Positions 2 through 9,113 of a stretch of 32,000 nucleotides of DNA are shown one piece after another. The notes under the pieces were generated by a model. That model worked only from the letters and a program-made list of their open reading frames with translations. It did not search any database and had not been told where the DNA came from. The first letter of the stretch is position 1, and each line of letters starts with the position of its first letter. Position numbers and translations under genes: made by a program. The stretch comes from Methylophaga frappieri (GTDB taxonomy: Bacteria > Pseudomonadota > Gammaproteobacteria > Nitrosococcales > Methylophagaceae): NCBI RefSeq assembly GCF_000260965.1, contig NC_017856.1:2640001-2672000 (forward strand), written 5' to 3'.

Positions 2-1396
2 GGCCTGACGCCTGAGTTACTCGACGAAATTCCCTCGCAGAACCAACCTGATTTACTGCTGACCGTGGATAACGGTATTGCCGCAGTGGCAGGCGTTGAT
101 GCGGCTAAAGCGCGTGGTATCAAGGTACTGGTCACCGATCACCATCTTGCTGGTGAAACGCTGCCACAAGCTGATGCCATTATTAATCCGAATCAGCCTG
201 GTGATACGTTTCCCTCTAAAAATCTGGCCGGTGTTGGCGTCTGTTTTTACCTGCTATTAGGCTTGCGTCAGGCTTTGCGTGAGCAGAGCTGGTTTGATGT
301 TCAGGGCCTGAAACAACCCAATGTCAGCGACTGGCTGGATCTGGTGGCATTAGGCACCGTCGCGGATGTGGTGCCGTTGGATCAACTCAACCGAACCTTG
401 GTGGATGTTGGTTTGAAGCGCATGCGCCAGCGTCGCGCCTGTGCTGGTATTCTGGCTTTGGCACAAGTTGCCGGACGGGAAGCCGTCAAGCTGGCCAGCC
501 CGGATTTAGCTTTCAGCATCGCCCCCCGACTCAATGCCGCGGGTCGTATGGATGATATGGGCTTGGGTATTAACCTACTGCTGAGCGATGACTGGCAGCA
601 GGCGCTGACGGCGGCTGCACAACTGGATCAGATTAACTTGGACCGACGCAGCGTCGAACAGCAGATGCAGCAGGATGCTTTAAGCATGCTCGATAAGCTG
701 TCATTGGACACCGACAATACCGCTCCCGGATTTTGCCTGTTCGATTCCGACTGGCATCAGGGCGTCATTGGTTTATTGGCCTCACGTATCAAGGAAAAAC
801 TGCACCGACCGGTGATTGCCTTCGCACCGGGCAATGAAGGTGAAATCAAAGGCTCAGCGCGTTCGATTGCCGGTGTGCATATTCGCGATGTATTAGCCCG
901 CATTGCCTCCCGTCACCCGGCCATGCTGCAACGCTTTGGCGGTCATGCCATGGCAGCTGGGCTAACCTTAAAGCTGGATGATTTCCAGACCTTTTCCCAA
1001 GCATTTGAAACCGTGCTGACAGAAATGGTTGATCCCGCGGTCTACCAGCAACACCTGCATTCCGATGGTGAGCTTCACCACGGAGAAATCAATCTGGATT
1101 TGGCGGAACAATTACCCAATGCCGCCCCCTGGGGGCAGGGCTTTGAAGAACCCCGCTTCCACGGTCTATTTGAAGTCGCAGACTGGCGGTTGGTGGGGCA
1201 GGATCAGGATCACTTACGCCTGAGTTTAAGCCTGCCCGATAACCGGAAAATCACCGCCATGGCCTTCAGACAAGGCAAACCCGACTGGCTGGAGCGGGGT
1301 ACACAAGTGCTGATTCGTTACCGGCTGGCCGTTAACGAGTTTCGAGCCACTAAGTCGGTACAGTTTCTGGTGGATGATTTATTGCAGCCGGTTTGA
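2..1396 (+). CDS. recJ: Single-stranded-DNA-specific exonuclease RecJ, 5'-truncated by the window edge
   Basis: The ORF is open from the window start (phase 2). It carries DHH-family motifs (TVDNGI, VTDHHL) and the GGHxMAAG motif (FGGHAMAAGL), and its length and architecture fit the RecJ C-terminal two-thirds. Confidence 0.93.
   Translation, partial: GLTPELLDEIPSQNQPDLLLTVDNGIAAVAGVDAAKARGIKVLVTDHHLAGETLPQADAIINPNQPGDTFPSKNLAGVGVCFYLLLGLRQALREQSWFDVQGLKQPNVSDWLDLVALGTVADVVPLDQLNRTLVDVGLKRMRQRRACAGILALAQVAGREAVKLASPDLAFSIAPRLNAAGRMDDMGLGINLLLSDDWQQALTAAAQLDQINLDRRSVEQQMQQDALSMLDKLSLDTDNTAPGFCLFDSDWHQGVIGLLASRIKEKLHRPVIAFAPGNEGEIKGSARSIAGVHIRDVLARIASRHPAMLQRFGGHAMAAGLTLKLDDFQTFSQAFETVLTEMVDPAVYQQHLHSDGELHHGEINLDLAEQLPNAAPWGQGFEEPRFHGLFEVADWRLVGQDQDHLRLSLSLPDNRKITAMAFRQGKPDWLERGTQVLIRYRLAVNEFRATKSVQFLVDDLLQPV
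1026..1357 (+). repeat. Copy 1 of a duplicated recJ 3'-end segment. It lies inside the intact recJ and is the partner of 1835-2143.
   Basis: Hand alignment of 1061-1357 against 1859-2143 gives 95 aligned codons, about 41/285 nucleotide mismatches and one 12-nt indel. Similarity is weaker but still visible back to 1026/1835. Confidence 0.85.
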
Positions 1397-1442
1397 ATTT
1401 AGCCCGAAGTACGAACTAAGTAATAGAAAAAGTGAATCCGAC

Positions 1443-1826
1443 ATGGAAAGTCAAACACGATTGAAAAATGTAATCATCGGCACATTTCTGGCTTTGTTAA
1501 TACTTTATGCGATGTGGTCAGTTTTTTTGATGCTAACCAGTTTTCAATTACACAATCTGACATCGCGTGAAATTTGCATTGAGGAGATAGACGTTGGCGT
1601 ATTTTCGTTTCTTGATGACAAGCCTGCCAAAATTCGTGAACTCATCCATTTTTCAGGATTCTCTCCCCGTCAAGTCGATGTCGCTTTAACTTACTCAAAT
1701 GGATTGTGTAATTCGACAGAAAAAGAAATGATTACCTCACATTGTCTGCTTGAAAGACATGGAGCAGACTACTGCTATTTATCACTCTTTCAAGACGAAA
1801 AGCTGAGTTGTGAGTGCTATGAATAG
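1443..1826 (+). CDS. Small membrane-anchored six-cysteine protein, paralog A (unknown family)
   Basis: It has an N-terminal hydrophobic helix (VIIGTFLALLILYAMWSVFLML) and a C-terminal domain with six Cys spaced identically to the paralog at 2222-2626. It ends KLSCECYE. I chose the ATG at 1443 over the ORF-track start at 1374, which lies inside recJ. The start is uncertain because the RBS is weak. Confidence 0.6.
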   Translation: MESQTRLKNVIIGTFLALLILYAMWSVFLMLTSFQLHNLTSREICIEEIDVGVFSFLDDKPAKIRELIHFSGFSPRQVDVALTYSNGLCNSTEKEMITSHCLLERHGADYCYLSLFQDEKLSCECYE

Positions 1827-1834
1827 AAATCAAG

Positions 1835-2143
1835 TTGGCTGACCCCTTGATACCTTCTTCCGATGGTGAATTGCATCACGTTGAAATCAACCTGGATCTG
1901 GCTGAACGATTACCCAATGCTGCGCCCTGGGGGCAAGGCTTTAAAGAACCGCGATTCCACGGTCTGTTTGAAGTCGCAGACTGGCGCTTGGTGGGAAAGA
2001 ACCAGGATCATTTACGCCTGCCCGATAGTCGTAAAATCACCGCCATGGCCTTCAGGCAAGGCAAAACCGACTGGCTGGAGCAGGGCACAGAAGTCCTGAT
2101 TCGTTACAGGCTGGTCGTGACCGAATTTCGAGCCATCAAATCA
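1835..2143 (+). pseudogene. Detached second copy of the recJ 3' end (RecJ C-terminal domain fragment)
   Basis: Its translation matches the RecJ tail at about 87% amino-acid identity (SDGELHHVEINLDLAERLPNAAPWGQGFKEPRFHGLFEVADWRLVG...). It lacks the first ~320+ codons of recJ and the last 12. The open frame runs on into unrelated AT-rich sequence to 2218. There is no convincing RBS, and only a TTG start. Confidence 0.8.
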
Positions 2144-2221
2144 TATTACGTTATTTTTTTGTTGCTTTTTAATATACAAGTAATATTCGGATCCAATGTA
2201 ATGATTAGAGTTGGCTAACAA

Positions 2222-2626
2222 ATGAGGTTTCCAAATAAGGCATCTGATAAGTCAAAGATGAAACCATTTGTTATCAGCATGATGCTAATTATGCTATTGC
2301 TTTATTTAGCATGGTCAACTTCTCAACTCATGACCCAAGTTCTTATTCACAACAATTCGCTTAGTAAAATTTGTATTAAGAAGGTCAAGCTGGGGGGAAT
2401 GCAATCTTATGTTAATGAAGAATCAGTCGAGGCTGCAGGGAGCACAGCCTTTATGGCTTTAGTGCCCAAGGAAGAGCGGGTGTTGCTAGCGTATTCATAC
2501 GGACTGTGCGGTGCAGGTGATGATGAGTTGTACACCTCAAATTGTATGCTTAAAAAAGGTACATCATACTCATGCTATGTATCAATCACTAGACATGGAA
2601 AGTTGAGTTGTGAGTGTAATGAGTAG
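2222..2626 (+). CDS. Small membrane-anchored six-cysteine protein, paralog B (unknown family)
   Basis: It has an N-terminal hydrophobic helix (PFVISMMLIMLLLYLAW). It shares motifs with paralog A (ICI, YSxGLC, TSxC, YxCYxS, KLSCECxE) with identical Cys spacing. A possible promoter, TTGTTG-N16-TAATAT, lies at 2159-2186. Confidence 0.65.
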   Translation: MRFPNKASDKSKMKPFVISMMLIMLLLYLAWSTSQLMTQVLIHNNSLSKICIKKVKLGGMQSYVNEESVEAAGSTAFMALVPKEERVLLAYSYGLCGAGDDELYTSNCMLKKGTSYSCYVSITRHGKLSCECNE

Positions 2627-2646
2627 CCATTTAATATTCTAAGACC

Positions 2647-2775
2647 ATGAAAAATCGCTTCACCCGCAGACAAAGTCTTAAAATGCTCGCTGCCAGTCTG
2701 GCTGTGACGCTGCTATCACCGCTGCCAAGCCTGGCCGCAAGCAGAGTTGTTTCGGAAACGCTATTCAAAGGATAA
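2647..2775 (+). pseudogene. 42-codon stump encoding a twin-arginine (Tat)-like signal peptide; probable remnant of a periplasmic protein gene
   Basis: It translates as MKNRFTRRQSLKMLAASLAVTLLSPLPSLAAS RVVSETLFKG then a stop. TRRQSLK fits the S/T-R-R-x-F-L-K Tat motif and is followed by an h-region and A-x-A-type site. It is too short to be a mature Tat substrate. Local GC is higher than in the flanks. Confidence 0.3.
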
Positions 2776-2857
2776 AACGCTGCCGGTGACTGGTATGGGG
2801 AGATCAATGGGGGCAGACATGATTGAAAATCGATCGACCCTGAACTCCTCAGATTCA

Positions 2858-3532
2858 TTATTGAATAACATCATCAGGAGAGGCTATCTTTAATTTAATC
2901 GCAAGATGGGTTAATTCAATATCATTGGCAACGCCCAGTTTGTTTTTGATTCTGTAGTGACAATTCGCTGCTGTTTTAGGGCTGATATTCAAAATCTCGG
3001 CGATCTGTTCAGCTGACTTAGCCATCACGATCAGTCTTAATATTTCGAATTCTCTCGGAGAGAGCTGTTTGATTGCCTCCGTCTGACTCGCAACATGCTC
3101 AATTGCCAATGCATGCTCTATGTCTGGACTTAAAACAAGTTGTTTATGTCTCACCACATGACGAATCGCATCAATTAATTTGTCTGGGTTGCTGTTCTTT
3201 GTAATATAACCACGAGCGCCAGCCTTAATGCTTTTAGCCGCAATCAATCCGGACAAATGCATGGTAAATACAATAATACGGGCCGTAGGGTCATAAAAGC
3301 GGAGCTTATTAATGGTTTCAATACCGCTCATTTCAGGCAGATTTATATCGAGTAAAACTACATCGGGTTGTATAGATTTATAGAGTTGATAGCCCGTTTC
3401 TCCGGTGTTGGTCTCAGCCGCAATATGGATATCAGAGTAGGAGTTAATGAGGGCCCGATAGCCTTCACGTACGATAGCGTGGTCGTCAATCATTAGCACT
3501 TTTATGCAATCCGCCTGCATCAGGTTATTCAT
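2858..3532 (-). CDS. Two-component response regulator, NarL/FixJ (LuxR-type HTH) family
   Basis: It has an N-terminal receiver domain (MIDDH..., phospho-acceptor context VVLLDINLP) and a C-terminal GerE/LuxR HTH (LSPREFEILRLIVMAKSAEQIAEILNISPKTAANCHYRIKNKLGV). Its start overlaps the kinase stop by 8 nt. Confidence 0.9.
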   Translation of the reverse strand: MNNLMQADCIKVLMIDDHAIVREGYRALINSYSDIHIAAETNTGETGYQLYKSIQPDVVLLDINLPEMSGIETINKLRFYDPTARIIVFTMHLSGLIAAKSIKAGARGYITKNSNPDKLIDAIRHVVRHKQLVLSPDIEHALAIEHVASQTEAIKQLSPREFEILRLIVMAKSAEQIAEILNISPKTAANCHYRIKNKLGVANDIELTHLAIKLKIASPDDVIQ

Positions 3533-4874
3533 CTGGCCTGTTCAGTGACATAACGACATTCAGTTTTAAGCCGCCGTCTGGAGGACTGGTGAGCGTTAAT
3601 TTTGCACCCAAGGCTTCAACTCGTTCAGATATACCGATCAATCCATGTCCAGCTGATAACTGAGTGACATTTGTCAGTTTCCCATCATCCTCAATGTCCA
3701 GTTCAAGCTGTGATTTTTGCGAGTCTAATTGAATGGTAATAAATGCATTTTTGGCTTGTGCGTGTTTGGCAATATTGGTGACGGCCTCCTGAACAATTCG
3801 AAATAACTGTAATGAATTTGCGCTTGAAACTGTATCTAACTGAGCACTCATTTCCAACTGATAGTGTATGCATGGACAATGTTGCTGCCAGTAGTTAATA
3901 AGTGATTGTAGACAGGCACTTAAGCCCAGATTCTCAATGTCTGTAGGGTTTAAGTAATCCAAAATATGCCTGAGTTGAATATGCATTGATGCTGTTACGG
4001 TGCAAGCCCTGCTTAGTGTTGTCTGAATGGCATCTGAGTCACTGTCGACAAGTTTCATCAGAAGACTGTGTGACGCCGTTAAGCCCGTCAGTGATTGCCC
4101 TAGTTGATCATGTAGCTCACGGGCCAGATATTTACGTTCCTCTTCTTGGACATTCATCAATCTAAACAGCAACTGTTGGTTTTCTTTCTGTGATTGTTTC
4201 AGTCTCTGCAGCATGTGATTTACGGTATTTGCCGTATCGTTCCATTCGACAATAGTAAAGTTAGGCAAGGAAGTCTCTAGGTTTTGATAGGCGATTTGAT
4301 TGAGTCTGGAATGGATTAGTTTTAATGGCCGCATTACAAAACTGATACTGAAAAAAAGCAAGACAGACAAACTGATAAAGAGCAGGAGTGAATAGCTCAT
4401 CAACTGATGTATCGCAGACCATGCAGTGCTGACTTGAACTGATTTATTCTGGCTTATCGATAATTCACCATAAGCTTTGTTTACGTGGTCAATAATGTGT
4501 TTCGTTTCTTCTTGAGGTGAAAAAATGTGCCAGTAAAGGGTCTCAAACCAAGCTGGCGTGACTTCTTGAATATCGGTTCCGCGACAGCGTCCTGCCTGAC
4601 GATTTGAATGGTAAGCAAGAAAGCTGATGCAAACGCCTGGCGCATTACCCATTTCATCCCACAAAATATAATCGGGTAATCGTTTGATGTACTCAAACCC
4701 AGTCGCAATTCGAGTCACCTGTAAGTTCAATGTATTTAATGCTGAAGTTTCAGCGTGTCTAAATTGGGCTTGTGTGTATTTATTGGCTTTGAACAACGTA
4801 TATGCAGATACCGTGATTAAACATAGGCTGGAACAGATAAACACGACGCTGATGAGATAGGTTGTGAGCCGCAT
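3525..4874 (-). CDS. Sensor histidine kinase, HisKA_3 (NarX/DegS-like) family, with an uncharacterised periplasmic sensing domain
   Basis: Two TM helices flank a ~130-aa periplasmic region containing two Cys. Also present are an H-box (ARELHDQLGQSLTGL), an N-box (QEAVTNIAKHA) and a G-box (DDGK...GHGLIGISERV). Confidence 0.9.
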   Translation of the reverse strand: MRLTTYLISVVFICSSLCLITVSAYTLFKANKYTQAQFRHAETSALNTLNLQVTRIATGFEYIKRLPDYILWDEMGNAPGVCISFLAYHSNRQAGRCRGTDIQEVTPAWFETLYWHIFSPQEETKHIIDHVNKAYGELSISQNKSVQVSTAWSAIHQLMSYSLLLFISLSVLLFFSISFVMRPLKLIHSRLNQIAYQNLETSLPNFTIVEWNDTANTVNHMLQRLKQSQKENQQLLFRLMNVQEEERKYLARELHDQLGQSLTGLTASHSLLMKLVDSDSDAIQTTLSRACTVTASMHIQLRHILDYLNPTDIENLGLSACLQSLINYWQQHCPCIHYQLEMSAQLDTVSSANSLQLFRIVQEAVTNIAKHAQAKNAFITIQLDSQKSQLELDIEDDGKLTNVTQLSAGHGLIGISERVEALGAKLTLTSPPDGGLKLNVVMSLNRPDE

Positions 4875-5016
4875 AGCTAATTCGTTGGTAAAGGGGATTC
4901 AATTCTATATGACATCGCGGCTGTTTTGCGCTTAACAGAGATATTCGGGCAAAACACCCGTCTAATACGGTCAAAAACGGGTAAGTCTGGTGCTTGCGAT
5001 GAAGTTAGGATAGTGA

Positions 5017-5033
5017 CTTTTCAAACTGAAAAG
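5017..5033. promoter_or_regulatory. Perfect palindrome CTTTTCA-aac-TGAAAAG directly upstream of the cupin gene start; candidate operator or RBS-proximal hairpin
   Basis: A 7-bp perfect inverted repeat with a 3-bp spacer ends 8 nt before the ATG at 5042. It sits in the divergent intergenic region shared with the two-component operon. Confidence 0.2.
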
Positions 5034-5041
5034 GCGCAAAA

Positions 5042-5494
5042 ATGACGACTTATGAATTTGATTATTACGCTGTAAATTGGCAGCAATTAACTGATTTTAA
5101 TAATTTCTATTATTATATTTTTGATGTTGATGAAACACACCAACTGGTTGATGTGATATTCCATTTCTTGCCACATACGCCCATTGTGTTACACCGACAT
5201 TGTGCGATTAACCACACATTCGTGATTCATGGTGAGCACCGCATTTATTATCCAAACGGAGAATTAAAAGAAATCAGACCGACGGGAAGTTATACCATCA
5301 GTCAGCCTGATGATTCACCACATAGAGAGTGTGGTGGGGATGATGGGACCATTGTCTTGTTTAATATTCGGGGGACACGTGGTGTGATGTACGAAATTAT
5401 GGACGATGACGGAACCGTTATTGCTGAATTTGATATGGCGGCATTTAAGGAGCTATTTAAATTACAAGAGATAGGCACTGTTTTAACAGACTAG
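5042..5494 (+). CDS. Hypothetical cupin-fold protein (ChrR-like cupin_7 type)
   Basis: The pattern PIVLHRHCAINHTFVIHGEHRIYYPNGE...GSYTISQPDDSPHRE resembles the H-x-H...G...H metal-site layout of ChrR-type cupins. The ORF is clean but has very AT-rich codon usage. Confidence 0.6.
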   Translation: MTTYEFDYYAVNWQQLTDFNNFYYYIFDVDETHQLVDVIFHFLPHTPIVLHRHCAINHTFVIHGEHRIYYPNGELKEIRPTGSYTISQPDDSPHRECGGDDGTIVLFNIRGTRGVMYEIMDDDGTVIAEFDMAAFKELFKLQEIGTVLTD

Positions 5495-5993
5495 TTTTTG
5501 TTGAGATAAAATCGTGTTAGATACGATTGAAAAGCTAAATTTTGATTTATATTTTGGGATGATAAAAACGATGATTGAATTATATATAGACATAGGGTTA
5601 GCACGAGAGAACTAAAAAGAATTGAGCATTAGCATCTTAGTCAAAAGTACCTTAAATAGAGGACAGAAAAGCATATATCCAAAGATTAGATTTAATTAAA
5701 ATTTGTAATCTTTAAGATTTCAAAAAATGGAGAGGCTAGGTACGAAATTGATAAAAAATCCATAGGCCAGAAGATCAACCTTTAGATCAATTTACAAAAG
5801 AATTTGTGAAGTCGCAGGCCTTTTCACTTATGACTGCATAGACGCATCGCGTTTTTAGTTTGGAATGATTAGAGTTCGTTCTACAAACACGCTGTTGAAA
5901 TCACACTGATAATTAAATTGCATCAAGTCAGTAAGATGCGGACAATATCAATTCTTGCACCATGAACCAGCTACCTGAGTTTGAGGAAAATCA

Positions 5994-8074
5994 TTGACGG
6001 ATTCGATTTACCAGCAGATCGCAGAAAAAATCGATGGTTTCCAAGTCAGGCTGCAGCAGCAACAGATGGCAGATTTTATTGATGCACAACTGCAGGTTGT
6101 AAATGGTCCTCGAATGGCGGTGGTGGAGGCGCCAACCGGCGTTGGTAAGACATTGGGCTATCTGAGTGGGGCACTCCGCACCGCCCAGCAGCAAAAAAAC
6201 TGTTGGTAATCAGCACCGCAACGGTCAATTTGCAACAGCAATTGATGCGTAAAGATTTGCCTGCTTTTTCTGCTGCTTTGGCCGAGCCAATTCGATTTAT
6301 TCAAATAAAAGGCCGTCGGCGTTATCTTTGCCCGAGTCGGTTAGAACAGCTGGTCACTGAGCCACAGCAAACTGCACTGGATTTGGACGTCGATGAAAAA
6401 TATCAGAACGCTATTTTTCAGGCTCAGGGAAAGCAGCTTTGGCAGCAGTGGGAATCCAATCAATGGGATGGTGATCGGGATCATTGTCAGCTCCCACTAC
6501 AAATGCCGTTATGGCAGCAAATATCGACAGATTCTGAAGGCTGTGCGGGTAAAAGCTGCCGGTTTTATCAAACTTGCCCGTATTATGTTTTGCGGCGGGC
6601 CTTGACGCAGGCGCATGTTGCGGTGGTCAATCATGATGTGATTTTGAGCGATGCCGATTTGGGCGGCGGGCTGGTATTACCGCCGCCGGAAGAAATGGTC
6701 TTGGTTTTCGATGAAGCGCATAACTTGCCTCGAAAAGCTTTGGATCATGCTGCTAAGACATTGGATTTTATGCAGCTTGAACAAATGCTGGAATCTGCGG
6801 AAAAAATGCTTAAAAAGCTGCCGACAATTTTGGCTTATCGGACCGCTGATTTCGGCTATATTTTTAAAGAGTCTCGTTCGGCAATTTCAGCTTGTAATCA
6901 ACACTTGCAATCGTTACAAACGCTGCTTGCTGATACCGATATGGTTAGCGATATGTTGCGTGGTGAATTGAGTGAGCCGCGCATATTTGCTGATCAGCCG
7001 TTATTTTCTGCCTTGTCTGTGCCGATGATAGCGTTGATGCAACAGGCAAATACACTTTATAAGCATGTTGTTTTGCTCGGCAAATGGCTTCGAGAAGGCA
7101 TGGAGTCATTGAAGATTCCAGCACGGGTTGGCGAGGCTATTTTGCCGCAGGTTGGCACAGTTCAAAACCTGACAGGCTACCTATTGGATTTTGTTCAATT
7201 ATTTTTAGCCGAACAGGTAGCGGATAAGCCACCGAATGTACTTTGGCTGTCTTTGTTGCAAACAAATCAGGATAAGCGCTTGTTGATGCATGCGGGGCCG
7301 ATGACCGCAGCGGATTTTCTTGCCAAAACGCTTTGGTATCGCGCTTATGGCGTCGTGATCACGTCGGCAACGTTGCGCGGTATGGGCCGCTTTCAACGCT
7401 TTCGCCATGATTGTGGCTTGTATCAGTATGATTCCAGTTATTTTTTGGCGGTACCCTCGCCATTTAAATATCAGCAACAAGCCACATTGAATTTGCCGGC
7501 GATGCGCTATTTACCCAGTGAGTCGCCGCAAGAGTGGCAAATTGAGTTATCAGAAAAATTGCCAGATTTGGTTGATCTCAGCAGCGCGACATTGGTTTTG
7601 TTTACTTCTAAAGTGGTGATGCAGTTTGTTTATCAACGACTGCCTAAGGCATTGACGCAAGTTATTTTGATGCAAGGCGAAGGGTTGACGGCGAAACGGA
7701 TGATTGAAAAACATTGTGAGCGCGTTGAATCTGGCCTGGGCAGTGTTTTGTTTGGGTTGGATAGTTTTGCAGAAGGGGTGGATTTACCGGGAGATCTGTG
7801 TACGCATGTCATTATCACCCGGTTGCCTTTTCCGGTTTTTACCCGGCCGATTGAACAAGCCCGTCAGGAATGGATTATCGCCAAAGGCGGCAGACCTTTT
7901 ACGGCGCTATCTCTACCTGCCGTCAGTGTAAAATTGATTCAGGCTTGTGGACGACTGCTTCGTAAAGAAACGGACTATGGCAATATTACGATTTTGGACA
8001 GGCGATTATTGACCAAGGGCTATGGTCGTCAATTGCTGGCAAGTTTGCCGGATTATCGTTTGGAAAGACACTGA
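5994..8074 (+). pseudogene. DinG/YoaA-family ATP-dependent DNA helicase (XPD-like, Fe-S), with its reading frame broken at an A7 run
   Basis: The N-terminal 71 codons (TTG start at 5994 with a GAGGA RBS; Walker A AEAPTGVGKT) are in one frame and the remaining 623 codons are in the -1 frame. The junction is at A7, 6193-6199. Four Fe-S Cys are present (CPSRL; CAGKSCRFYQTCPY) along with a DEAH box (VFDEAHNL). The N-terminus aligns with E. coli YoaA from residue 1. Confidence 0.85.
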
Positions 8075-8081
8075 GTGATTA

Positions 8082-8110
8082 GCTCAACCCGGCGGTGAGC
8101 CGGGTTGAGC
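8082..8110. terminator. Perfect 12-bp hairpin between the convergent helicase and ppiC genes
   Basis: The sequence is GCTCAACCCGGC-ggtga-GCCGGGTTGAGC. Neither side has a clear U-tract, so its terminator function is uncertain. Confidence 0.4.
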
Positions 8111-8121
8111 CAACAATACCA

Positions 8122-8400
8122 TTAACTGCGGCTGGTGACCTCAAGCAAATGGTATCCGAATTGCGTTTTTACTGGGCCTTGTACCGTACCCACTGGCGCC
8201 GAGAAGACGACTTTATCAAACTCAGGTACCATCATTCCCGGGCCAAATTCACCCAGATCACCGCCTTGCGCTGATGATGGGCAAGATGAATGTTCTTTGG
8301 CAACAGCAGCAAAGTCTGCGCCTTGTTCAATTTCACGTTTTAATTCGTTACAAATTTCTTCACTTTCAACAAGAATATGTCTCGCAGTTGCTTTAGTCAT
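8122..8400 (-). CDS. ppiC: Peptidyl-prolyl cis-trans isomerase C (parvulin)
   Basis: A 92-aa protein from the internal ATG at 8400 (MTKATARHILV...GGDLGEFGPGMMVPEFDKVVF...FGYHLLEV), typical in size and motifs for parvulins. The longer ORF-track start would add a non-homologous extension. Confidence 0.88.
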   Translation of the reverse strand: MTKATARHILVESEEICNELKREIEQGADFAAVAKEHSSCPSSAQGGDLGEFGPGMMVPEFDKVVFSAPVGTVQGPVKTQFGYHLLEVTSRS

Positions 8401-8432
8401 GATCAATCCTATGGTTAGAAAAGTTATAGATT

Positions 8433-9113
8433 TTATGAATTTAAGGCGTCGAGCAGTGCCTGCGCCGTTTCGGCAGAAGAGGCCGGGTTTTGACCGGTGA
8501 TCAATTTGCCATCGACTTGGACTAATGACGCCCAATCTTCACCTTTGTGATAAATTGCGCCGCGTTCTTTAAGCGCGTCCTCTAGTAAAAATGGCACAAC
8601 TTGGGCCAGACCAACTGCTGATTCTTCACTATTAGAAAAAGCTGTGACGTTTTTGTCTTTGACCAGATACTCGCCATCGCTGGTTTTCACATTTAGCAGG
8701 ACGGTTGGTGCGTGACAGACGCTCGCTACTGGTTTACCCGCGGCATAAAGCTGTTCAATGAGTTTTATTGAAGCAGGATGATTGGTGAGGTCCCAAAGCG
8801 GGCCATGACCACCAGGGTAAAAAACAGCATCGAAATCGCTTGAATTAACACTGTCCAAACGAACCGTATTAGCCAGATGCTGTTTGGCTTGTTCATCTTG
8901 ATTAAATCGATCGGTGTCCGCTGTTTGGAAATCAGGTTGATCGCTTTTTGGATCCAGTGGGGGTTGACCGCCATTAGGTGATGCCAAAACGATTTCCGCA
9001 CCTGCATCTTTTAAAACGTAGTAAGGTGCTGCAAATTCTTCGAGCCAAAAACCGGTTTTTTCACCGGTATTCCCCAACGCATCATGCGAGGTGAGTACCA
9101 TTAAAACTTTCAT
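8433..9113 (-). CDS. DJ-1/PfpI family (type 1 glutamine amidotransferase-like) protein
   Basis: It begins MKVLMVLTSHD...GFWLEEFAAPYY and has a nucleophile-elbow Cys in ASVCHAP. The ATG at 9113 is preceded by a GGAGA RBS. Confidence 0.85.
   Translation of the reverse strand: MKVLMVLTSHDALGNTGEKTGFWLEEFAAPYYVLKDAGAEIVLASPNGGQPPLDPKSDQPDFQTADTDRFNQDEQAKQHLANTVRLDSVNSSDFDAVFYPGGHGPLWDLTNHPASIKLIEQLYAAGKPVASVCHAPTVLLNVKTSDGEYLVKDKNVTAFSNSEESAVGLAQVVPFLLEDALKERGAIYHKGEDWASLVQVDGKLITGQNPASSAETAQALLDALNS

Follow-up and report, generated by a model that had tools for sequence, protein, structure and literature searches.

The 3' end of recJ, a gene for a housekeeping exonuclease, is present twice in the chromosome of Methylophaga frappieri, and each copy is accompanied by a small cysteine-rich gene. 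The stretch of this chromosome that was analyzed, here called the window, is 32 kb long, and all coordinates are positions within it. The order of elements is the end of the live recJ (tail 1), a small gene A, a detached second recJ end (tail 2), and a small gene B. Sequence comparison supports the derivation of the two tails from two recJ lineages approximately 0.6 synonymous substitutions per site apart, and it likewise supports a decay of tail 2 that began only recently. The whole arrangement between recJ and a DinG-like helicase gene is probably, though far from certainly, the scar of several recombination events at a plastic spot and not a working device. Its principal elements are as follows.

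2–1396, forward strand: live recJ, with the 5' end beyond the window and the Pfam domains DHH, DHHA1, and RecJ_OB
1053–1357, forward strand: tail 1, the segment of live recJ with a second copy, delimited by local alignment and a repeat finder
1404–1442, forward strand: upstream region of gene A, starting where homology to relatives ends
1443–1826, forward strand: gene A (identical to Q7C_2642), 127 aa, with an N-terminal membrane helix followed by a predicted beta-sandwich with six cysteines
1828–1851, forward strand: hairpin of a repetitive extragenic palindrome (REP), AATCAAGTTGGCTGACCCCTTGAT, 24 nt placed directly between the stop of gene A and tail 2, of a family associated with REP-associated tyrosine transposases (RAYTs)
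1852–2143, forward strand: tail 2, a detached recJ pseudogene fragment comprising recJ codons -114 to -14, with a 12-nt deletion at 2010|2011
2144–2533, forward strand: hyper-divergent block made up of an AT-rich spacer and the 5' two-thirds of gene B, with synonymous sites saturated relative to gene A
2222–2626, forward strand: gene B, a paralogue of gene A, 134 aa, or 123 aa if read from the ATG at 2255
2534–2626, forward strand: 3' third of gene B, moderately diverged from gene A positions 1734–1826

Local alignment and the repeat finder matched 1053/1060–1212 to 1852/1858–2010 and 1225–1357 to 2011–2143, at 86% identity, and according to the repeat finder this pair represents the sole long repeats of the window. 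Between the two matching segments, 12 in-frame nucleotides (1213–1224) are missing from tail 2. The fragment matches the Pfam family RecJ_OB (6e-17) over profile positions 2–100 of 107, the last seven positions being absent; its homology stops 39 nt short of the recJ stop, so that the last 13 codons are lacking. These 13 C-terminal residues of RecJ are nearly invariant across Methylophaga. Over 95 aligned codons, the mismatches at codon positions 1, 2, and 3 numbered 9, 7, and 26, and 24 codon differences were synonymous against 13 non-synonymous ones (12 under the gap placement of an earlier note on this DNA). The Nei-Gojobori estimates were 0.62 for synonymous divergence (dS) and 0.062–0.067 for non-synonymous divergence (dN), giving a ratio (omega) of 0.10–0.11 with a bootstrap 95% interval of 0.05–0.20, and the silent excess was highly significant (Fisher p = 4e-11). 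The earlier note had described the doubled recJ end with its two cysteine-rich genes, an in-frame SLSL indel, and an excess of silent changes between the tails. The repeat finder, alignment, Pfam, and BLASTP agree on the first of these, the indel corresponds to the absence of 1213–1224, and the mismatches are indeed not spread evenly over codon positions. The order of tail and gene within each module was also described correctly, but the recJ homology of the second module begins at about 1852 and not at 1835, the positions 1828–1851 belonging to the REP.

The history of the two tails was reconstructed from recJ loci gathered from 80 species representatives (labeled L001 and so on), of which 13 were Methylophaga other than the window species. 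Two of these loci, L001 and L002, come from Methylophaga metagenome-assembled genomes (MAGs) whose recJ products are 95% identical in amino acid sequence to the live RecJ of the window. The outgroup tails are collinear with tail 1, and none of the 80 loci has the 12-nt gap; in tail 2, direct repeats of GCCTG border the deletion. With L001, L002, and five others as outgroups, the differences between the tails were placed on branches with the following result.

Unique to tail 1: 10 changes, 10 synonymous and 0 non-synonymous
Unique to tail 2: 14 changes, 4 synonymous and 10 non-synonymous
Homoplastic and not assignable: 17 changes, 14 synonymous and 3 non-synonymous

The ratio found on the tail 2 branch agrees with neutrality (p = 0.75), rejects an omega of 0.1 or less (p <= 3e-4), and differs from that of tail 1 (Fisher p = 6e-4). 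Since its own changes fit neutrality, unlike those of tail 1, tail 2 is a dead fragment. Four of them, all non-synonymous, fall on residues that are constant in every aligned Methylophaga RecJ (14 RecJ sequences were aligned), namely E>K (in GFEEP), Q>K (VGQ), P>T (KPDW), and N>T (VNEF), and the residues altered by E>K and N>T are also conserved in a Thiohalophilus sequence. Neighbor-joining placed tail 2 outside the clade of tail 1, L001, and L002 with 91% bootstrap support (60% when limited to third positions) and, relative to L006, within the group with 87%. The dS of tail 2 to tail 1, L001, and L002 was 0.62, 0.65, and 0.58, respectively.

About 14 changes in the 285 nt of tail 2, or 0.05 per site, are clearly of neutral type, and the distance from its lineage to the node shared with tail 1 is about 0.3 synonymous substitutions per site. 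Arithmetic on the branch counts shows that roughly three-quarters of the separate history of tail 2 passed under recJ-type constraint. Most of its divergence therefore accumulated in a working recJ of another genome. The branch assignment, the clock, and the position in the tree thus support the proposal of the earlier note that the tails derive from different recJ lineages.

The two modules are in register, with copy offsets of 798 and 786 in the tails and 800 at the cargo 3' ends, but similarity along them falls into three blocks. The proteins A and B are 32% identical (BLASTP 7e-23), with six cysteines and an N-terminal hydrophobic helix in both; the cargo is far more diverged than the tails with their 86% nucleotide identity, as the earlier note had said. 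Within the cargo genes, the last 93 nt (the 3' thirds) have 70% nucleotide identity, and the remainder has 48%. The first 95 codons show synonymous saturation (proportion of synonymous differences, 0.72), and for the last 31 codons, dS is about 0.49 and dN is 0.36. The breakpoint lies at A1734/B2534, where third-position mismatch drops from 59% before to 13% after, a contrast reached in 0 of 1,000 permutations. Both flanks of the divergent block have about the same age, and the middle is far older or of other origin. No homologous spacers and no remnant of a third cargo gene could be recognized in 2144–2221, where local alignments were no better than those of shuffled sequences (47–142 of 300 shuffles reached the observed score), and both candidates were rejected. 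The left junctions of the two cargo blocks are unlike, one lying 7 nt past the recJ stop and the other 39 nt before it, which speaks against the fixed target site supposed earlier. The joints 1851|1852, 2143|2144, and 2644|2645 are abrupt, and the first shares at most ACC(T).

The live recJ is itself a mosaic. A recombinant patch near-identical to L001 was delimited by the maximum chi-square method.

1190–1396, forward strand: recombinant patch of live recJ

The patch has 5 mismatches to L001 in 207 nt (97.6% identity), compared with 186 mismatches in 1–1189 (84.4%); within it, 131 of the 133 positions of 1225–1357 match. The breakpoint follows position 1189, and its chi-square value was reached in 0 of 200 permutations. 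Homology to relatives ends at 1403, 7 nt beyond the recJ stop. Such an abrupt jump in identity that continues up to the stop codon indicates that the 3' end of recJ was recently exchanged with an L001-like lineage. This exchange was considered as the event that imported gene A or produced the duplication and was rejected, because 1053–1212 differs by about 17.5% from its counterpart in tail 2.

The REP at the junction of the two modules starts 1 nt past the gene A stop. Its hairpin folds with -5.1 kcal/mol (z = -3.5), and 1 of 200 shuffled sequences was as stable. Searching with a pattern with two free positions recovered exact matches in at least 120 metagenome stretches (L093–L212), many contigs carrying several copies, in both orientations and as doublets. 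At 15 or more loci, a gene for a 236-aa Y1-transposase (RAYT, Pfam Y1_Tnp) starts 30–66 nt from an inverted REP copy, and the last codons of the RAYT gene (KNQVG-stop) form the 5' half of a REP copy. On the strength of these matches, the 24-mer can be assigned to a widespread marine RAYT family as its REP; Rfam has no family for it. The consensus has an extra A before the core and TT after it. The window has the first bases of tail 2 in place of this TT, which makes the 3' foot of the hairpin a novel joint. An attC reading of the palindrome was discarded, as its AAATCAAG/CTTGAT stem is tied to RAYT genes and GTTGGCT misfits GTTRRRY.

The metagenome loci bearing the REP have a mean GC content of 40% and do not resemble Methylophaga. 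The Methylophaga sequence examined, about 200 kb, has REP copies only just after recJ, in two species, that of the window and that of L006 (Methylophaga MAG BWSM_61). The L006 copy is in inverted orientation and matches exactly over 16 nt and at 22 of 24 positions overall. It belongs to a low-GC insert of 508 nt (L006 positions 7396–7903) between convergent recJ and PfkB genes, in which an open reading frame (ORF) for a 114-aa membrane protein is bracketed by an inverted REP pair, a half copy at 7429–7441 and a full copy at 7861–7884. In L003 and L011, recJ and PfkB overlap at their stop codons, with no insert. The window contains one full REP copy and no RAYT gene. The 11-mer AGTTGGCTRAC occurs twice, the second motif, at 2206–2219, being at chance level (18% of shuffles give at least two). 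The REP-bearing metagenome loci, 650 kb in total, contained no A/B homologue, and the cargo-homologue loci contained no REP. The REP may have come with gene A, may have helped to form the joint, or may have been inserted later.

Beyond gene B, which ends 20 nt before the ATG of the next gene, the interval up to the helicase is occupied by the following features.

2647–2800, forward strand: about 52 codons left from the 5' part of a Tat-signal aldo/keto reductase gene, with a frameshift
2858–5494, no strand assigned: low-GC replacement DNA where relatives have reductase, membrane-protein, PfkB, and dehydrogenase genes
2858–3532, reverse strand: LuxR-type response regulator
3525–4874, reverse strand: histidine kinase
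5042–5494, forward strand: ORF of 150 aa without assigned function
6203–8074, forward strand: DinG-like helicase gene, the conserved far flank of the variable interval

The reductase is intact and directly follows recJ in L002, L005, and L020. The interval 1400–6100 has a GC content of 31%–47%, against 52%–58% in recJ, gene A being at about 38%, and the two-component pair within it is foreign. The ORFs of 1397–6110 are those of genes A and B, the reductase remnant, the response regulator, the histidine kinase, and the 150-aa product; no integrase gene, att site, or attC was found there. Promoter-like and terminator-like sites around the modules were not above chance, and the sole tRNA gene of the window is 22 kb away. 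A separate observation concerns 5400–6000, just upstream of the helicase gene, where GC is 31%–36%, GC skew is strongly positive, and there is no long ORF. At least eight layouts of the recJ-to-helicase interval occur among 14 Methylophaga.

Layout 1 (L004, L033, L010): recJ and helicase directly adjoining
Layout 2 (L008, L009): one dehydrogenase gene between them
Layout 3 (L003, L011): PfkB and dehydrogenase
Layout 4 (L006): REP-bracketed ORF and PfkB
Layout 5 (L007): about 1.5 kb of other DNA, PfkB, helicase
Layout 6 (L002, L005, L020): Tat-signal aldo/keto reductase, membrane protein, PfkB, dehydrogenase
Layout 7 (L001): as layout 6, with an extra 2.7-kb insert
Layout 8: the arrangement of the window

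The region downstream of recJ is thus variable, as had been proposed, but variation in the number of modules or in A/B cargo was not found: neither a second recJ tail nor an A/B-like gene occurs in any of the 13 other Methylophaga species or at any of the 80 recJ loci, a comparison at the level of species and not of strains related to JAM7, the strain of the window. A literature search on insertions downstream of recJ returned nothing relevant.

Searches with the cargo genes gave few relatives. Pfam, PADLOC, and NCBIfam gave no match for A or B, exact-sequence look-ups with four start variants found no match, and a word-indexed protein search returned the query proteins themselves alone. A metagenome scan and a viral scan with the A/B alignment also gave no match. 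An exhaustive profile search of 1.84 billion representative proteins yielded six further small homologues, all with the helix, six cysteines, and a C-terminal ...C-x-E-C-Y-K/E motif. AlphaFold2 predicted for gene A a helix followed by a nine-strand beta-sandwich (pLDDT 89), and a Foldseek search with this model gave generic beta-sandwich matches alone (E >= 4e-3, TM < 0.5). The A/B profile also has many weak repeated matches (positions ~32–104) in the tandem Ig-like repeats of three giant surface proteins of 1,058–5,123 aa (P0003, P0006, and P0010). These matches agree with the predicted beta-sandwich and are not evidence of specific homology.

In five of five independent contexts recovered (L081–L092), the A/B homologue lies 30–34 nt upstream of a gene that starts with a DUF6973 domain, which is followed in the partner proteins by calcium-binding RTX or TSP3 repeats; the two genes thus form a conserved pair. 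Outside the window, the homologues were never beside recJ in the contexts recovered, so the tie between this cargo family and recJ implied by the earlier note is not supported. No DUF6973-type partner is encoded in the window; the partner has no relative in PDB and no mention in the literature searched. A and B may be membrane-anchored, disulfide-rich beta-sandwich proteins that evolve fast. Because their homologues elsewhere are paired with a downstream DUF6973 gene, they may here be orphan partners or immunity-like envelope proteins, a suggestion drawn from gene neighborhood alone. A short DUF6973 segment, AEAVRQGYPEWLVR (L084, L091, and L092), resembles the RecJ tail segment AMAFRQGKPDWLER (window 1256–1297 and 2042–2077) at 9 of 14 residues (tblastn E ~0.2). 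The likeness is probably due to chance and is recorded because the recJ tail follows gene A where the DUF6973 gene sits elsewhere.

One-sided homologous recombination with illegitimate joins is the best reading of these data, and we consider its chances somewhat better than even; there is no sign that the process recurred. An origin of this kind has been suggested for effector fragments that were displaced and for arrays of orphan immunity genes (PMC5361080). In a first event, DNA of a related Methylophaga lineage, about 0.55–0.6 dS away, would have been joined to the resident locus, both partners being laid out as recJ end, spacer, and cargo gene. One end would have been joined by homology, in recJ or on the far side, and the other illegitimately, at the 3' foot of the REP after gene A, onto recJ position ~1053. 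Gene A and the REP would thereby stand behind an intact recJ, with a redundant recJ tail and a second cargo gene after them; either module could be the newcomer. The redundant tail then drifted neutrally, a step shown by its 10 non-synonymous and 4 synonymous unique changes and in the slippage-type 12-nt deletion. A second event may have swapped the block 2144–~2533 for a far more divergent homologue, with the 3' third of the cargo gene as the homologous anchor and the other join illegitimate, inside the dead tail. Such a join within a useless tail would explain why the last 13 codons of tail 2 are gone. As its mosaic structure indicates, 1190–1396 of the live recJ was overwritten by a separate L001-like homologous patch.

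Several points weigh against this history. A cargo gene stands beside recJ in no sampled relative, so the donor arrangement is hypothetical, and the order and polarity of the events are not fixed by the data. No partner sequence could be matched to the joins at 2143 and 2644. The joint 1851|1852 has 3–4 nt of microhomology at most, the exact 3' limit of the REP is uncertain, and the REP could have been inserted once the joint existed. The counts are small, the tails offering 66 synonymous sites and the cargo 3' block 18, and the mosaic nature of recJ weakens the placement of tail 2 in the tree. The arrangement is known from the assembled sequence alone.

Among the alternatives, an in-situ tandem duplication of a unit of about 0.8 kb (recJ tail, spacer, cargo gene, and REP) with its join-point at the REP survives best. 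It accounts for the collinear modules of near-equal length with their offsets of 798, 786, and 800, and the joint of the unit end (REP) to the unit start (recJ 1053) is exactly what it predicts. The copies would later have diversified by fast cargo evolution and homologous patches, the foreign and functional look of tail 2 being such a patch, and imported patches do occur at the recJ locus. Tandem duplication is also seen around the A/B family: on a 2.2-Mb metagenome-assembled contig (L081, ERZ26694059), a 1.05-kb unit is duplicated at 6500–8639, with 95.7% identity along its whole length. This unit comprises a C-terminal fragment of RTX, a 36-codon piece from the N-terminal end of a GH108 lysozyme-like gene, a homologue of A/B (P0012 and P0011), and the start of a DUF6973-RTX gene. 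It has the look of a genuine in-situ duplication and in this contrasts with the window, where divergence along the unit is uneven, with 86% identity, then none, then 48%, and then 70%. A neutral tail at a dS of 0.6 should have collected some 80–100 changes with about three non-synonymous per synonymous one, but only about 14 of clearly neutral type are seen, and tail 2 does not group with tail 1. A simple in-situ tandem duplication thus does not fit, given the uneven three-block similarity, the clock, and the ratio of non-synonymous to synonymous changes. The patched version appears unlikely to us; it still needs inter-lineage recombination and therefore differs from one-sided recombination in its first step only.

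The earlier note had seen in the recJ 3' end the homology arm of a recurrent cassette-exchange site. The 97.6% L001-like patch supports the view that the recJ 3' end serves as a recombination arm at this locus. At a dedicated, recurrent site, possibly driven by REP/RAYT, small cassettes bounded by REP hairpins would be delivered next to recJ, with older modules pushed downstream. The cargo borders are tight, the REP lying 1 nt past the gene A stop and gene B ending 20 nt before the next ATG, and the confinement of REP copies in about 200 kb of Methylophaga sequence to the position directly downstream of recJ, in two species, also points in this direction. RAYTs belong to the HUH nucleases and cut at REP hairpins (PMC3479197). 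Against such a site stand the absence of a second tail or an A/B homologue in 13 of 13 Methylophaga species and at all 80 recJ loci, the absence of a RAYT, integrase, or attC in the window, and left junctions that differ between the modules. Moreover, the region has one full REP, the motif at 2206–2219 is not above chance, A/B genes are missing from the 650 kb of REP-bearing metagenome loci and REPs from the cargo-homologue loci, and the L006 cargo is unrelated to A and B. We regard a dedicated site as quite improbable. The broader idea that REP hairpins, with a RAYT nuclease cutting at their foot, help to capture or join small foreign gene cassettes is similarly doubtful. It would explain the joint at the REP foot, the REPs after recJ in two species, and the bracketed ORF of L006. 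If it were true, REP/RAYT systems would gain a role in moving protein-coding DNA, and the 3' border of recJ would be a preferred landing site for fast-evolving envelope-protein genes. To our knowledge, REPs have no established role in the movement of protein-coding cassettes.

It is very improbable that tail 2 belongs to a functional gene, the 127-aa ORF 1835–2218 encoding a stand-alone RecJ OB-domain protein under selection. This ORF is uninterrupted and matches RecJ_OB, and its overall omega relative to recJ is 0.10, but the changes on its own branch are 10 non-synonymous to 4 synonymous, invariant residues are altered, and the last OB strand is absent. Its TTG start lies inside the REP with no ribosome-binding site, its end is AT-rich hydrophobic read-through, and an open frame is expected by chance after about 14 substitutions. 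Hardly any weight can be given to an assembly chimera of two recJ alleles from a mixed sample, since the sequence comes from an isolate genome recorded as one contig of 2.70 Mb, the copies are 14% different with unique flanks, the pseudogene-type changes and internal deletion of tail 2 are unlike a second live allele, and repeat collapse loses duplications rather than creating them. A Campbell-type insertion of a circle is not distinguishable here from one-sided homologous recombination with an illegitimate join.

Under one-sided recombination, the locus would be a clean and datable natural case of a conserved housekeeping gene serving as the homology anchor for swapping adjacent variable DNA, in which the displaced fragment preserves a record of the donor lineage and of how long ago the event took place. 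Stacking of the displacement type would then not be confined to toxin loci. Two side products are a widespread marine REP/RAYT family without an Rfam family, found here at a recombination joint, and a small uncharacterized family of apparently membrane-anchored six-cysteine beta-sandwich proteins, whose partners elsewhere are always secreted DUF6973/calcium-repeat proteins. Being a single scar without recurrence, the locus leaves the general picture unchanged and is of modest interest, the REP at the joint being the feature worth following.

Known systems resemble the locus to different degrees. Integron cassettes are each followed by an attC (an imperfect palindrome RYYYAAC ... GTTRRRY) and are served by an intI/attI platform; the palindrome after gene A is a REP and there is no integrase, which excludes an integron gene cassette. 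Genomic islands that enter the 3' end of a gene and bring a replacement end share with the window an intact target and a displaced partial 3' copy on the far side of the insert. The window differs in having no integrase, an insert of 0.8 kb, a repeat of about 290 nt with 86% identity in place of a short identical att, and a displaced copy truncated at its own 3' end. The comparison with such islands drawn in the earlier note accordingly fails: no tyrosine or serine recombinase gene and no short identical att repeats are present, and an integrase-driven island is out.

REP/REPIN and RAYT systems (Bertels & Rainey 2011, PMC3116915; Messing et al. 2012, PMC3479197) match the 24-mer as a short extragenic palindrome, highly repeated, in both orientations and in doublets, whose family flanks a single Y1-transposase gene. 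The copy in the window differs as a lone singlet with no RAYT nearby, and its position at a gene-fragment joint is unusual.

The stacked form of the locus is that of the C-terminal displacement known from rhs, cdi, and type VI secretion system loci (Jackson et al. 2009; Kirchberger et al. 2017, PMC5361080), and to this extent the likeness pointed out earlier stands. In both cases, a new 3' end arrives with an adjacent small gene, the former 3' fragment is displaced downstream together with its small gene and retained, the conserved upstream part of the gene is the homology anchor with an illegitimate far join proposed, and divergence is far greater in the adjacent small genes than in the anchor. 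The anchor here, however, is a housekeeping exonuclease gene and not a polymorphic toxin gene, the displaced piece is a conserved OB domain instead of a variable toxin domain, and the window has neither a toxin nor a secretion system. A and B are not cognate immunity proteins of the tail, their homologues being paired with a downstream DUF6973 protein and not with an upstream fragment, and the single stack does not recur in 13 related species. Membership in these orphan arrays was therefore rejected: the stacking is there, while the toxin main gene, cognate immunity, and recurrence are not.

Homology-facilitated illegitimate recombination during natural transformation (de Vries & Wackernagel 2002; Prudhomme et al. 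2002, cited in PMC5361080) is a further counterpart. The match here is drawn from sequence alone, and a joint at a REP foot is not known as a feature of this process. The live recJ is clearly mosaic, yet its patch 1190–1396 is not from the event that duplicated the tail. The novel joint in the window has a few bases of microhomology at most and no target-site duplication, as this process would leave. The process shares with the window one homologous anchor and one joint of the microhomology type, with foreign DNA at the border of a conserved gene and a mosaic anchor gene.

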